Origin: a virus
Reading direction: 5' to 3' (one strand)
DNA length: 30,952 bases
UHGV virus genome: UHGV-0110025
Part shown: piece by piece, positions 1,100-30,952 of the stretch
Position numbering within the stretch: the stretch's first letter is position 1
How the letters are laid out: every line of letters starts with the position of its first letter
Notes under the pieces: generated by a model
What the model was told of the DNA's origin: nothing
Database searches by the model: none
Seen by the model: only the letters and a program-made list of their open reading frames with translations
Program-made: the position numbers and the translations under genes

Positions 1100-1121
1100 A
1101 ATGTCACCGAGGCAACTCTTA

Positions 1122-1460
1122 TCATTCGCAAAGTGCTGTCGCAGCATCCATTACGGGATCCAAAGGAATTTTTACTCCTTCATAATCCGGGCTATCTTTC
1201 CAAACAGTATCAATATCGCTCCCCTCAAGCTTTCCAGACTTTACACCATCAATAGCAAACCCATTTAATGGGTATCGGTCATCTGTTGCTTTGTCGTACA
1301 CAAAGGCATATCTACCATTAACACAAGACACCGTAGCTTTTTCAAAAGTTAACGGCCAATCATCACCAAACTTAGCACCGTCTAAATCCTGTGTTTTTTC
1401 AGCGGCTGATGCACCGAAAGAAAGTGAAAGAAATAAAGCTAAAAAAAGCTTACGTTTCAT
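1122..1460 (-). CDS. Secreted/periplasmic DUF2511 (YebY-like) protein, cargo gene between repressor and int
   Basis: ORF 1122..1532 trimmed to the ATG at 1460. N-terminus MKRKLFLALFLSLSFGASAAE is a classic Sec signal peptide. The mature part (two Cys, YPLNG motif) resembles E. coli YebY/DUF2511 from memory. More AT-rich than its neighbours. Starts 9 nt after the repressor stop. Confidence 0.7.
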   Translation of the reverse strand: MKRKLFLALFLSLSFGASAAEKTQDLDGAKFGDDWPLTFEKATVSCVNGRYAFVYDKATDDRYPLNGFAIDGVKSGKLEGSDIDTVWKDSPDYEGVKIPLDPVMDAATALCE

Positions 1461-1468
1461 AATGTCCC

Positions 1469-2305
1469 TTATACGTGTTTTTCCAATGTGAAAATTACAG
1501 CACCTACTGGTGTGATATCTGTAATGCTGCATTCAAACTCGGCAGACTTATTTGACAACCTGACTTTTCCGCCGGGAAGACGAATTACATCAAAAACATC
1601 AAGAGCGCCGTCAATATCAATTAACCAACGCCCATTACTTATGTTCGAAGCAGAACGGTTGACAAGCCAAGAGGCTCCAACACCTTCAACAAAAATCAAC
1701 TCCTCTGAGTCAGAGGGTATCATCGAGGGGTCTGGATGCCATTCGCCAGCGTCCTTAAGCTCACCCGCTTCAAGGCGAAATTTTTTAATTGAAAAACTTG
1801 ATGTGACCATTTCTCTGTTAGTTCGCATTTGCCCCTTGCCGGTTGCTAACCATTCCAGCGAAACACCAGTATCAAGGGCACAAGTAACAACTACATCGCC
1901 TGGGAAAAAATCACGCCGAACCCATGTGCTAATTGTTCCAGATGATATACCGAGTAAATCACCCAGCTCCTTTTGCATAGAAAAACCGTAAGCATCAAGG
2001 ATGCGTCTCAGAACAGGTTTACCACCTGAAGCCATGACCTTTTCATAAAGCTCTTTGCCCTTCAGGGTCGCACGTGAAGAGTTTGCTTTTGCAAGCTCCC
2101 CTGTCACTAACCATCCGATATCTGCGCCCGTTTCAATAGCACATTCAACAAATACATTGCCCGGAACGCTATCTCTGGCAAGCCAACTGCTTATGTTGTT
2201 GGCATAAATACCAAGTTTTTCGCCAAGTTCTTTTTGCGAGCTAAGTCCATAAGCCGAAAGGATTCTTTCGATAGCCGGAGCCGCACCATCTCCAAATTTA
2301 GCCAT
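1469..2305 (-). CDS. cI: Immunity repressor, 186 CI-like, with tandemly duplicated N-terminal HTH domain
   Basis: aa ~10-72 and ~97-157 are two copies of one motif: RIL.AYG.S.QKELG..LGI....IS.W..RD..PG.V.V.CA..TG....WL.TG, matching the 186 CI HTH type. A ~115-aa C-terminal domain follows (WLIDIDG...LPGGK). Divergent from the apl/cII operon. SD GGTGG upstream of the ATG. Confidence 0.85.
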   Translation of the reverse strand: MAKFGDGAAPAIERILSAYGLSSQKELGEKLGIYANNISSWLARDSVPGNVFVECAIETGADIGWLVTGELAKANSSRATLKGKELYEKVMASGGKPVLRRILDAYGFSMQKELGDLLGISSGTISTWVRRDFFPGDVVVTCALDTGVSLEWLATGKGQMRTNREMVTSSFSIKKFRLEAGELKDAGEWHPDPSMIPSDSEELIFVEGVGASWLVNRSASNISNGRWLIDIDGALDVFDVIRLPGGKVRLSNKSAEFECSITDITPVGAVIFTLEKHV

Positions 2306-2315
2306 GTATCGCCAC

Positions 2316-2363
2316 CAAAATTAATTTTCGCCATTGCAAAATTAAATTTCGCGAACTAAAGTG
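2316..2363. promoter_or_regulatory. Early switch region: two AT-rich operator-like repeats plus a candidate rightward early promoter
   Basis: CAAAATTAATTTTCGC (2316-2331, containing the perfect 12-bp palindrome AAAATTAATTTT) is repeated as CAAAATTAAATTTCGC (2337-2352), offset 21 bp. TTGCAA (2335-2340), 17-nt spacer, TAAAGT (2358-2363) is a plausible sigma70 promoter towards apl. The leftward repressor promoter could not be placed confidently. Confidence 0.45.
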
Positions 2364-2425
2364 ATGATTATCAACCACGATGCACATCAATGCAGTTCAC
2401 TACAAACAACAGGAGATAATGCGAT

Positions 2426-2797
2426 ATGTCAGATGCAAAATCAATCTCGACGCATGATTCGCAAAACTCACAAAATCAAACTGTGCTGTTAGATCCGGCT
2501 CAGTTTGATGCCATCGTTACCGCTATGCTGCCAGCTCTGCAGACAATGATCCGCTCCGCTATGTCAGACACAATGACAGTGAAAGACTTTGCCGCCACTC
2601 GCGGTGTAAGCGAGCGTCTGGTCTGGCAATGGCTTGATGAGGGAATCCTCCTCAAAGCTCCAACTAAAGACTTTTCCAACAAGGAAGAGGCTGGAAAACG
2701 AAGCCGCACCCTCGTAAACGTGAAAGCATGGCGCGACAAACTAACCCAGCAAGCGATTGATTGTCGCTACATCGACCACCGCATCGCTCTTAACTGA
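2426..2797 (+). CDS. Apl/Cox-like excisionase and switch regulator (HTH), with a long N-terminal extension
   Basis: First gene of the rightward early operon, the position of 186 apl and P2 cox. AGGAG SD lies 11 nt upstream. C-terminal two-thirds (MTVKDFAATRGVSERLVWQWLDEGILLKAP...VNVKAW) looks like a Cox/Apl-type HTH. At 123 aa it is longer than Apl/Cox (~90 aa). Confidence 0.6.
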   Translation: MSDAKSISTHDSQNSQNQTVLLDPAQFDAIVTAMLPALQTMIRSAMSDTMTVKDFAATRGVSERLVWQWLDEGILLKAPTKDFSNKEEAGKRSRTLVNVKAWRDKLTQQAIDCRYIDHRIALN

Positions 2798-2829
2798 ATT
2801 TGATTATGCAAGTTAGAGGGAATTTAACC

Positions 2830-3339
2830 ATGTTTGATTTTCAGATTTCTAAACATCCTCACTATGACGAAGCGTGCCGGGCTTTTGCGCAGCGTCACAA
2901 CATGGCGAAGCTGGCCGAGCGTGCGGGTATGAACGTTCAAACGTTACGTAACAAGCTCAACCCAGAACAGCCTCACCAATTCACACCGCCTGAATTGTGG
3001 CTGCTGACTGACCTGACCGAAGACTCAACCCTCGTTGATGGCTTTCTGGCGCAAATACATTGTCTGCCATGCGTGCCGGTTAATGAGCTGGCTAAAGAGA
3101 AATTGCAGTCTTATGTGATGCGCGCAATGAGTGAACTCGGCGAACTGGCGAGCGGTGCGGTATCAAATGAACGTATGACCTCTGACCGCAAACACAGCAT
3201 GGTTGAGAGTGTTAATGCAGGCATCCGCATGTTGTCTCTGTCGGCGCTGGCGTTACAGGCGCGTCTACAGGCTAACCCGGCAATGTCGAGCGTGGTTGAT
3301 ACCATGACCGGCATCGGCGCAACATTTGGTTTGGTATGA
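2830..3339 (+). CDS. cII: Phage 186 CII-type lysogeny establishment regulator
   Basis: ORF 2800..3339 trimmed to the ATG at 2830 (SD AGAGGG). MFDFQISKHPHYDEACRAFAQRHNMAKLAERAGMNVQTLRNKLNPEQPHQFTPPELWLLTDL is, from memory, close to 186 CII. Confidence 0.9.
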   Translation: MFDFQISKHPHYDEACRAFAQRHNMAKLAERAGMNVQTLRNKLNPEQPHQFTPPELWLLTDLTEDSTLVDGFLAQIHCLPCVPVNELAKEKLQSYVMRAMSELGELASGAVSNERMTSDRKHSMVESVNAGIRMLSLSALALQARLQANPAMSSVVDTMTGIGATFGLV

Positions 3340-3346
3340 GGTGTTT

Positions 3347-3547
3347 ATGCTGAAAAATGAACCCTCATTCGCATCTCTGCTCGTTAAACAAAATCCAGGT
3401 ATGCATTACGGTCACGGCTGGATCGCGGGTAAAGATGGTAAGCGCTGGCACCCGTGCCGCTCTCAGTCTGATTTACTGGCTGGCCTCTCTACTCAAAAGC
3501 TGGGGGAATCATGGCTATCGAAGCTGTTTCCGCGACTATTCCGCTAA
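3347..3547 (+). CDS. fil: 186 Fil-like small early protein
   Basis: ATG at 3347 preceded by GAGGTG. MLKNEPSFASLLVKQNPGMHYGHGWIAGKDGKRWHPC resembles 186 Fil. Position immediately after cII. Confidence 0.65.
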   Translation: MLKNEPSFASLLVKQNPGMHYGHGWIAGKDGKRWHPCRSQSDLLAGLSTQKLGESWLSKLFPRLFR

Positions 3548-29736: not shown

Positions 29737-30902
29737 TAACGGGGATGGCAATTGACGCCGGTGCCAGCCTTGCACCGGCATTTATGTTGACGCTGAACAG
29801 CCAGGACATTACCAGCAATTTTAGTGACCGATTGATTTCTCTCACCATGACCGATAACCGGGGTTTTGAGGCTGACCAGCTCGATATTGAGCTTGATGAT
29901 ACCGACGGGAAAGTTGAGTTACCCCTGCGCGGGGCAGTGCTGACGCTGTGGCTTGGCTGGCAGGGCTCGGCGTTGCTGAATAAGGGGGATTTTACGGTCG
30001 ATGAGATTGAGCACCGGGGAGCGCCTGACACCCTGACCATCCGGGCGCGCAGCGCGGACTTTCGCGGCACGCTAAATTCCAGGCGTGAAGAGTCATGGCA
30101 TGACACCACCATCGGAGAACTGGTCAGCACCATCGCAAAACGCAATAAACTGACGGCCAGTGTCGCTGATTCACTGAAAAAAATCCCGGTACCGCATATC
30201 GACCAGTCGCAGGAGTCCGACGCGGTGTTTCTGACCCGGCTAGCTGACCGAAACGGAGCTGCGGTGTCAGTGAAAGCGGGGAAATTGCTGTTTCTGAAAG
30301 CCGGTAGTGCGATGACGGCCAGCGGCAGAGCCATCCCGCAAATGACGCTGACCCGTAGCAATGGTGACCGTCATCAATTTGCTATTGCCGACCGTGGGGC
30401 TTATACCGGCGTAACGGCAAAATGGTTGCACACTAAAGACCCGAAGCCGCAAAAGCAAAAAGTGACGCTGAAACGCCAGCCAAAAGAGAAACACCTACGC
30501 GCACTGGAGCACCCGAAAGCAAAGCCTGTCAGCAAAAAGACAAAGGCCAAAAAAGAGCAGGAGGCTCGCGAGGGTGAGTATATGGCCGGTGAAGCCGATA
30601 ACGTGCTGGCGCTGACAACGGTCTACGCATCAAAGGCGCAGGCGATGCGTGCCGCTCAGGCTAAGTGGGATAAACTGCAGCGAGGCGTTGCGGAGTTTTC
30701 AATCACACTGGCGCTAGGGCGAGCGGATTTATTTCCTGAGACGCCTGTACGTGTGTCGGGCTTTAAGCGCGTAATAGACGAACAGGTATGGTTAATCAGT
30801 AAAGTAACTCACATTCTGAATAATAGTGGCTTCACGACGGGGTTAGAGCTTGAGGTTAAGCTATCTGATATAGAGTACAGCTCAGAGGAAAGCGAAATAT
30901 AA
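29733..30902 (+). CDS. D: Late/tail protein gpD
   Basis: 389 aa, ATGA overlap with U. Last gene of the P2 FI operon. Confidence 0.93.
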   Translation: MITGMAIDAGASLAPAFMLTLNSQDITSNFSDRLISLTMTDNRGFEADQLDIELDDTDGKVELPLRGAVLTLWLGWQGSALLNKGDFTVDEIEHRGAPDTLTIRARSADFRGTLNSRREESWHDTTIGELVSTIAKRNKLTASVADSLKKIPVPHIDQSQESDAVFLTRLADRNGAAVSVKAGKLLFLKAGSAMTASGRAIPQMTLTRSNGDRHQFAIADRGAYTGVTAKWLHTKDPKPQKQKVTLKRQPKEKHLRALEHPKAKPVSKKTKAKKEQEAREGEYMAGEADNVLALTTVYASKAQAMRAAQAKWDKLQRGVAEFSITLALGRADLFPETPVRVSGFKRVIDEQVWLISKVTHILNNSGFTTGLELEVKLSDIEYSSEESEI

Positions 30903-30952
30903 AAAAGCAAATCATAACTTGCAAATGCAATTTTAGAGTTTATTATTCCCTC

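Follow-up and report, generated by a model that had tools for sequence, protein, structure and literature searches.

The CI switch region of the virus genome UHGV-0110025 (30,952 nt, referred to below as the window, i.e. the whole stretch of DNA that was analysed) was examined with respect to its repressor gene cI and the sites at which the repressor may act. The window holds a prophage of E. coli of the Eganvirus (186/PSP3) type. Its positions 1100-3400 show 99.9% nucleotide identity to chromosomal prophages in E. coli TUM14697 and A38 and, one divergent stretch excepted, 82-88% identity to the phages SEN1, vB_EcoM-613R3, Midge and PSP3. The gene order, with int, a DUF2511 gene and cI facing an apl-like gene, cII and fil, is the wiring of phage 186, and cI is the first gene of a leftward lysogenic operon with int, facing apl/cox-like and then cII, as in 186-type switches (Table 1). 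The repressor carries two helix-turn-helix (HTH) domains, termed HTH1 and HTH2 from the N-terminus, and the locus is a common, apparently undescribed variant of the 186 CI switch. The comparisons described here lend fairly good support to the hypothesis that its tandem domains are specialised and that its immunity cassette is swappable.

A sequence-only reading that preceded this analysis had described CI as a 186-family immunity repressor of 278 aa with two copies, roughly half identical, of one HTH domain and a single C-terminal domain (CTD), and all of this was borne out. Phage_CI_repr (PF07022) was found by Pfam in two stretches and Phage_CI_C (PF16452) at aa 172-271 (74.5 bits). When scanned alone, aa 1-85 gave Phage_CI_repr with 65.9 bits (aa 11-70) and aa 86-170 gave the same family with 102.3 bits (aa 98-161 of the whole protein), the Pfam cut-off for this family being 22 bits, and the two halves are identical in 34 of 64 positions (53%; BLASTP, E = 5e-26). 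Since the 186 CI structure 2FJR aligns end to end with aa 97-271 only (phmmer, 1.8e-25), the extra HTH is the N-terminal one. CI is a complete 186-like repressor (HTH2 and a wheel-type CTD) to which a second HTH (HTH1) is joined at the N-terminus via a flexible linker. Unlike the 186-type CI, which has one HTH within about 190 aa (192 aa in 186 itself) and binds two classes of sequence with it, the window protein has 278 aa and two HTH domains; the HTH of 186 CI is homologous to HTH2 (41% identical), and the CTDs are 26% identical.

In the monomer predicted with AlphaFold2 (AF2), CI consists of two five-helix domains and a beta-rich CTD, HTH1 having a predicted local distance difference test score (pLDDT) of 75-87. 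The linkers at aa 73-82 (pLDDT below 50) and aa 161-170 are of low confidence and the predicted template-modelling score (pTM) is 0.39, so that the relative orientation of the domains is undefined. The AF2 CTD was superposed by Foldseek on the 186 wheel domain 2FKD with a template-modelling score (TM) of 0.89 and a root-mean-square deviation of 1.7 Å. In the Foldseek search against the PDB only the CTDs of 186 CI and of LexA/lambda were matched, and no solved tandem-HTH homologue was found. An internal start at M91, which would give a short single-HTH isoform, was considered and rejected because the Met is not conserved, the residue being M, L or V in relatives.

The two-HTH architecture had been thought unusual, which turned out to be wrong. 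The same layout is present in PSP3 CI (AAN08403, 286 aa, deposited 2003) as well as in SEN1, Midge, SW9, SI22, vB_EcoM-613R3 and RCIP0057, and in hundreds of enterobacterial protein clusters. The best 120 clusters, drawn from many Enterobacteriaceae, are all 267-287 aa long, and a single one of them is represented on 737 contigs. The window's own CI type (87-99% identical) accounts for 28 clusters and occurs in Klebsiella, Enterobacter, Citrobacter and E. coli, which speaks against the earlier suggestion of a new immunity specificity. With a CTD-only query against 50%-identity representatives, about 46 full-length clusters were obtained; nine of them (about 20%) are long (285-313 aa), and all nine have two PF07022 matches. 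The sequence-only reading had also allowed for the duplicated form being common and already characterised; the form is indeed common, and no paper characterising it was found. A literature search for tandem-HTH CI or PF07022 returned no describing paper, only a comparison of P2-like regulatory regions from 2011 in which PsP3 CI is described with a 'longer C-terminal domain' (PMC3448106), and no biochemical characterisation of the CI proteins of the PSP3 group was found in the literature. The architecture is common and apparently undescribed.

Between cI and the first lytic gene, two near-identical 16-bp elements, CAAAATTAATTTTCGC and CAAAATTAAATTTCGC, match at 15 of 16 positions, and their starts lie 21 bp, i.e. 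two helical turns, apart. The first contains the perfect 12-bp palindrome AAAATTAATTTT. Both features, and the overlap of the elements with a rightward promoter, had been noticed in the letters alone and were upheld. At up to three mismatches, the 31-kb window contains only these two repeats, not counting the first repeat matching itself on the opposite strand; in shuffled-sequence controls the mean was 0.47 matches, and three matches were reached in 2 of 100 shuffles. A strict scan of 2200-2500 for sigma-70 consensus promoters and terminators found nothing, and the promoter pR was therefore assigned from conservation across relatives. Its layout (-35 TTTACA or TTGCAA, -10 TAnAnT) is present in 17 of the 18 scanned related loci and in all eight operator types of this set, with a recurring spacer of 17-18 bp (17 in nearly all). 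The overlap of the repeats with the rightward promoter is well supported by this comparison, and the repeats are very probably the CI operators at the lytic promoter. A third pR operator was sought 21 bp to either side and only a half-match was found (CAAATTTA, 2293-2300), which is not claimed as a site. Most related pR types have GATC directly before the -10 (CGATC followed by TATAGT), a possible Dam methylation site, where the window has CGCGAAC.

The arrangement is that of 186, where adjacent dimers in a 14-mer wheel of the single-HTH CI occupy pR operators at a distance of two helical turns (PMC3675496), and where the strongest palindrome of pR is likewise located in the -35/-10 spacer (186 record). 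The two switches share the gene order, the facing promoters and the two-turn spacing at pR, and the window has candidate distal sites at the positions equivalent to FL, FR and pB, its pR operators being, as in 186, of another sequence class than these sites. Unlike in 186, which has three pR operators, two are evident in the window, and all operator sequences differ between the two phages. The sequence-only reading had instead compared the repeats with those of P2 C. The latter belongs to the same wider phage group, and its early promoter is also repressed via two repeats about two turns apart. As a dimer, P2 C, which has about 100 aa and one DNA-binding domain, recognises direct repeats that are not palindromic (PMC2995052). 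The two proteins are unrelated; the window elements are (pseudo)palindromic and the window protein is of the 186 CI family; all significant Pfam and PHROG matches are to 186-CI-type or generic HTH families. The likeness to P2 C did not hold up, as the single-HTH 186 CI already uses two-turn operators.

A second class of candidate sites was recognised through relatives that have HTH2 but not HTH1. When genome contigs were searched with HTH2 and the CTD, single-HTH CI proteins were also found in Rahnella and Ewingella, whose sole HTH is 79-82% identical to HTH2 (aa 93-160) with an identical recognition helix. The spacer of their divergent cI promoter contains the 16-bp palindrome ACTTGCA-NN-TGCAAGT, the only operator-like element in the Rahnella remnants with an HTH2-type-only CI. 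In three of four genes this palindrome at the promoter lies 74 nt upstream of the GGK codons. A search of the window with this motif gave three placed matches, at positions corresponding to FL, FR and pB of 186.

The FL-like palindrome (GTTTGCTTTTGCAAGC, core TTGCTTTTGCAA) has the same offset as the Rahnella-type palindrome: of 21 PSP3-type two-HTH loci that were compared, 15 have the core 63-74 nt upstream of the HTH2 GGK codons. The DNA motif is kept although the encoded peptide changes (ELANAN vs NLNLQD), and this suggests that the DNA itself is under selection. In 186, the distance of FL and FR from pR is about 300 bp (PMC3675496) and FL is inside cI, there in the linker between HTH and CTD, in contrast to the window, where the FL-like site is in the inter-HTH linker. 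The FR-like palindrome (ATTTGATTATGCAAGT) has the same position as 186 FR and shows two mismatches in PSP3, SEN1, SW9 and the viral contigs L119 and L059. The pB-like site (ACTTGCAAATGCAATT) has the position of the first CI site of 186 pB (186 record). Its exact 12-bp core is unique in the 31 kb, and PSP3, Midge, SW9 and E. coli TUM14697, whose pR operators are of four different types, all have AACTTGCAAATGCAA without change upstream of pag/ogr. Conservation of the position of the FL-like and FR-like sites extends to relatives with a CI identity as low as 51%. An exact-motif scan of viral contigs gave at least 120 matches, mostly due to chance, of which only those with P2-like context were used; among the matches listed there are six of these, three FL-like and three D/ogr intergenic sites. 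A comparable division exists in 186, in whose record FL, FR and pB share ATTCAC-N5-GTGAAT and the pR centre is a different palindrome, ATCTCTCAATTGGGAGAT; the single HTH of 186 CI reportedly recognises two distinct sequences (Shearwin et al. 2002).

The two HTH domains have evolved at different rates. Among PSP3-type two-HTH relatives, HTH1 is 48-69% identical to that of the window (100% within the same type), the linker is the least conserved part of the protein (35-50%), HTH2 is 81-100% identical and the identity of the CTD goes down to 37%. Across all relatives, including the single-HTH Rahnella proteins, HTH2 stays 79-100% identical and the CTD drops to 34%. The asymmetry extends to eight two-HTH clusters that have diverged much further: identity is 54-85% for HTH2, whose recognition helix hardly varies (SSGTISTWVRR-like), and 30-57% for HTH1, which has many different helices. 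At the DNA level, the variable part forms a divergent stretch of ~320 bp within otherwise conserved DNA. Identity in this cassette is 45-75% to PSP3, SEN1, Midge and SW9 (45-61% to the first three). In the flanks it is mostly 76-98% for these three and lower for SW9; from 2360 on it is back to 78-81% in all four, and the Megablast alignment splits into two pieces at the cassette.

Altogether, ten operator types were distinguished, eight in the first locus set and two in the viral contigs L119 and L059, each with its own HTH1. In each type, the spacer and the stretch just upstream of the -35 hold either a pair of AT-rich (pseudo)palindromes or a single large inverted repeat. The same HTH1 goes with the same operators despite divergence of the CTD, as in Midge and the Erwinia locus L016, the CTDs of which are 89% and 55% identical to that of the window. 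Where related HTH1 helices differ, as in Kosakonia (PANNISSWIQR, with ATCGCATTTGCGAT) and L119 (PANNISGWTQR, with ATCGTATTTACGAT), the operators are changed symmetrically, as expected for a dimer on a palindrome. Due to its constancy across operator types, HTH2 cannot explain the operator differences, and these comparisons support the N-terminal region as the part in which immunity types differ. A constant pR half-site for HTH2 was looked for and rejected, the recurring CACCA and TTACA being the cI ribosome-binding site and the -35.

Within the PSP3 group (PSP3, SEN1, Midge, SW9, 613R3 and RCIP0057), CI has the same two-HTH layout as in the window, HTH2 is 91-96% and the CTD 76-89% identical, and the FL-, FR- and pB-like palindromes and the promoter layout are the same; the whole CI of the window is 78% identical to that of PSP3. 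Unlike these shared parts, the pR operators differ and the identity of HTH1 is no more than 49-69%, for which reason the window phage is presumably heteroimmune with all six.

Table 1. Genes, protein domains and (predicted) regulatory sites of the window.
Feature	Position	Strand or direction	Description
int	50-1147	leftward	
DUF2511 gene	1122-1463	leftward	between int and cI
cI	1469-2305	minus	open reading frame, 278 aa; PF07022 x2 + PF16452; phrog_4 transcriptional repressor
CTD, aa 172-275	1481-1792	minus	predicted oligomerisation domain with 186 CI wheel fold; PF16452, Foldseek
HTH2, aa 95-157	1835-2023	minus	conserved, equivalent of the single HTH of 186 CI; PF07022; recognition helix SSGTISTWVRR
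Inter-HTH linker codons, aa 71-94	2024-2095	minus	aa 73-82 predicted disordered; helix aa 83-93 before HTH2
Divergent 'immunity cassette'	~2040-2360		HTH1 and linker codons, both pR operators, -35; 60-nt sliding identity profile
FL-like palindrome	2081-2096		core with 1 mismatch; in cI codons 70-75, ~245 bp left of pR
HTH1, aa 8-70	2096-2284	minus	extra fast-evolving domain; PF07022; recognition helix ~YANNISSWLAR
Promoter-distal pR operator CAAAATTAATTTTCGC	2316-2331		between cI ribosome-binding site and -35; predicted from repeat and comparison
pR, early lytic promoter	2334-2362	plus	-35 TTGCAA 2334-2339, 17-bp spacer, -10 TAAAGT 2357-2362
Promoter-proximal pR operator CAAAATTAAATTTCGC	2337-2352		overlaps -35 and spacer; predicted from repeat and comparison
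apl/cox-like gene	2426-2797	plus	first gene of lytic operon, 123 aa, PSP3 gp30 type; phrog_3554, 3.9e-74
FR-like palindrome	2798-2813		3 mismatches; directly past apl-like stop (2795-2797), 17 nt before cII ATG
cII	2830-3339	plus	cII-like activator of lysogeny establishment; PF06892, 8.7e-48; 90% DNA identity to 186 cII
pB-like candidate operator	30917-30932		1 mismatch; past gene D stop (30902), over -35 of late-activator promoter
Late-activator promoter	-35 TTGCAA 30920-30925; -10 TATTAT 30942-30947		

Taken together, the reading that is preferred here, at a probability of roughly 0.55, is that HTH1 reads pR and sets the immunity type and that HTH2 reads the FL-, FR- and pB-like sites. Two HTH1 domains from one CI dimer would read each (pseudo)palindromic pR operator, and adjacent dimers of a CI oligomer would fill both operators two turns apart as in 186, by which pR would be repressed and the immunity type set. 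The HTH2 domains would read the conserved palindromes: the FL-like site within cI and the FR-like site at the apl/cII junction would loop to the pR-bound oligomer, and, with the site on the late-activator -35 occupied, the late genes would stay silent in the lysogen. The two sequence classes, served in 186 by a single HTH, would in the window CI be split between two domains, and immunity could be exchanged by a cassette swap alone with looping and late-gene control left untouched. For PSP3-type CI proteins in general, the chances appear evenly balanced that the HTH domains are specialised in this way, i.e. that the fast-evolving outer domain is responsible for immunity at pR and the slowly evolving inner domain recognises, clade-wide, a common palindrome at FL, FR and the late-activator promoter.

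The roles of the domains may be distributed differently. The sequence-only reading had proposed that one chain bridges the two pR repeats, with HTH1 on one 21-bp-spaced repeat and HTH2 on the other. The match in number between domains and repeats suits this proposal, and the flexible linker (aa 73-82 disordered) might just span about 70 Å, but the repeats match at 15 of 16 positions, yet the recognition helices differ (YANNISSWLAR vs SSGTISTWVRR), and each repeat has the (pseudo)palindromic form that would be expected if two identical domains bound it. Moreover, in about 10 relatives both repeats change together with HTH1, HTH2 being 79-100% identical; because of this co-variation with HTH1 and not HTH2 bridging is unlikely, and because the pR operators of 186 have the same two-turn spacing with a single HTH, the spacing does not call for it. 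It is the least probable of the assignments considered. The same co-variation could be mere linkage if HTH2 were the sole operator reader, also at pR, and HTH1 an accessory domain for regulation or sensing; HTH1 lies right beside the operators and is inherited with them. This is very improbable, since the pR operators are wholly different between types with HTH2 unchanged, most types are without a TTGCA palindrome at pR, HTH1 and HTH2 both score well for Phage_CI_repr, and related HTH1 helices pair with related operators.

Composite operators, in which HTH1 and HTH2 of one chain would act as a pseudo-dimer on a variable HTH1 half-site and a constant HTH2 half-site, are improbable as well. Tandem domains on a short linker could occupy adjacent major grooves, and engineered single-chain repressors do work as composite-site pseudo-dimers. 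Against this stand the lack of a half-site common to the pR operator types beyond the -35 and the cI ribosome-binding site, the absence of a TTGCA half-site from most types, and the AF2 model, which shows no fixed packing of HTH1 on HTH2. Somewhat less remote, though still unlikely, is a non-DNA-binding HTH2, kept as a spacer, an oligomer contact or an antirepressor target, with HTH1 binding alone and the palindromes belonging to another factor or being relics. Conservation alone is no proof of DNA binding, and the FL- and FR-like matches are weak in the window. On the other side, the helix of HTH2 is identical to that of the sole HTH in the Rahnella proteins, the palindromes occupy known 186 CI site positions and the -35 of the late-activator promoter, and the FL-like DNA motif is kept with differing peptides (ELANAN vs NLNLQD).

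Several observations weigh against the split of roles between HTH1 and HTH2. In the window alone, three matches to the palindrome at up to three mismatches compare with 1.65 expected, and only the pB-like site is beyond chance; the FL-like (4/14 mismatches) and FR-like (3/14) sites are within chance expectation, their weight being positional conservation only. No palindrome and no recognisable pR were found in the two-HTH loci of Lonsdalea, and the TTGCA palindromes could belong to another conserved protein. The spacing of the pR operators varies by type (SW9, about 18 bp; PSP3 and Dickeya, 22-23 bp as read here), and in the Brenneria and Pectobacterium types the two operators are replaced by one large inverted repeat with the -35 at its centre. 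As the HTH1 codons adjoin the pR operators, linkage alone would make both co-segregate. Furthermore, every assignment of a domain to a site in the two-HTH CI is comparative, and the 14-mer wheel is putative for the window CI, by analogy with 186.

Two further comparisons define how far the split of roles may reach. The CI proteins of the Klebsiella P2-like prophages Kp4871-2 and ST11-VIM1phi8.4 (L008, L009) also combine two PF07022 domains with PF16452, but their HTH pair is 57-64% identical mutually and 26-51% identical to either PSP3-type domain. Judged by these identities the Klebsiella lineage is probably an independent duplication, and the split of HTH roles need not apply there. It has 186-like recognition helices and GTGAA-containing repeats near the promoter. 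Eukaryotic POU domains and engineered single-chain 434 repressors also have two HTH-type units in one chain with a flexible linker, and they bind one composite site; unlike in these, the evidence from the window suggests that the two domains serve separate classes of site, located at different loci.

Few alternatives to the lambda switch have been modelled as deeply as that of 186, in which the recognition of two unrelated operator classes by one HTH is an open oddity. A widespread variant in which the classes are apparently split offers a handle on local repression, looping and late-gene control by the CI wheel together, as well as on how immunity types arise by cassette exchange and how duplication gives a new specificity with the old circuitry intact. 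If the assignment of HTH1 to pR and HTH2 to the distal palindromes is true, one oligomer could hold pR and the distal sites through different heads, and immunity would be swappable as a ~320-bp cassette, the natural variants representing orthogonal repressor-operator pairs on a common scaffold. For synthetic circuits this would be a possible family of orthogonal repressor heads with a shared oligomerisation scaffold. The FL-like site in the linker codons, sole operator in the Rahnella remnants, would then record the building or dismantling of the architecture. If the model is wrong, the finding is an undescribed but common domain architecture.

The prophage remnant with the single-HTH cI in Rahnella and Ewingella (L022-L041; e.g. 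L029, 2035-3070) adjoins a DAHP synthase gene and contains, besides cI, a 91-aa open reading frame and a TraR-like gene. The cI open reading frame is intact in many species, which suggests a domesticated repressor. In-frame similarity to the two-HTH linker persists upstream of the Rahnella cI start and hints that the single-HTH form arose by deletion of HTH1.

With regard to the neighbouring genes, the 123-aa apl-like protein matches phrog_3554 (unknown function) end to end; matches to Cox-like proteins are weak only, and the Pfam scan of this protein gave no significant family. Its counterpart is annotated as Cox in Midge, and that of PSP3 was classified as a singleton type of Cox/Apl in the 2011 comparison (PMC3448106). 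Between the pR -10 and the apl-like start codon, at 2380-2395, the motifs ATGCAC and ATGCAG occur 10 bp apart, and PSP3-type phages have TGCAC twice, likewise 10 bp apart. The Apl sites of 186 are direct repeats one helical turn apart, and the pair in the window is a candidate for sites of the Apl/Cox-like protein by analogy. Additionally, CAAAATCAA is present twice in the 5' part of the apl-like gene (2432-2447 and 2471-2482), with its complement near the cII start (2832-2848). Each copy looks like one half of the FR-like palindrome; they may be weak CI sites in the pL region, comparable to those of 186, or equally well be due to chance.

In the mechanical list of open reading frames, cII extends from a TTG at 2800 to 3339. 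The true start is probably the ATG at 2830, where the protein begins with MFDFQ, like 186 CII; with this start the FR-like palindrome and the ribosome-binding site fall in the intergenic gap. Rightward after cII follow fil, genes for DUF5347, DUF2732 and TraR-like proteins and then the replication gene A. On the other side of cI, the DUF2511 (YebY-like) product has a signal-peptide-like N-terminus, and its gene is kept in PSP3-type phages (PSP3 gp28); it is likely a moron expressed in the lysogen. At the far end of the window (30890-30952), the last part of gene D and the late-activator promoter spacer are not the same as in E. coli TUM14697, the cI region of which is 99.9% identical, indicating local mosaicism with the TTGCAAATGCAA core unaltered.

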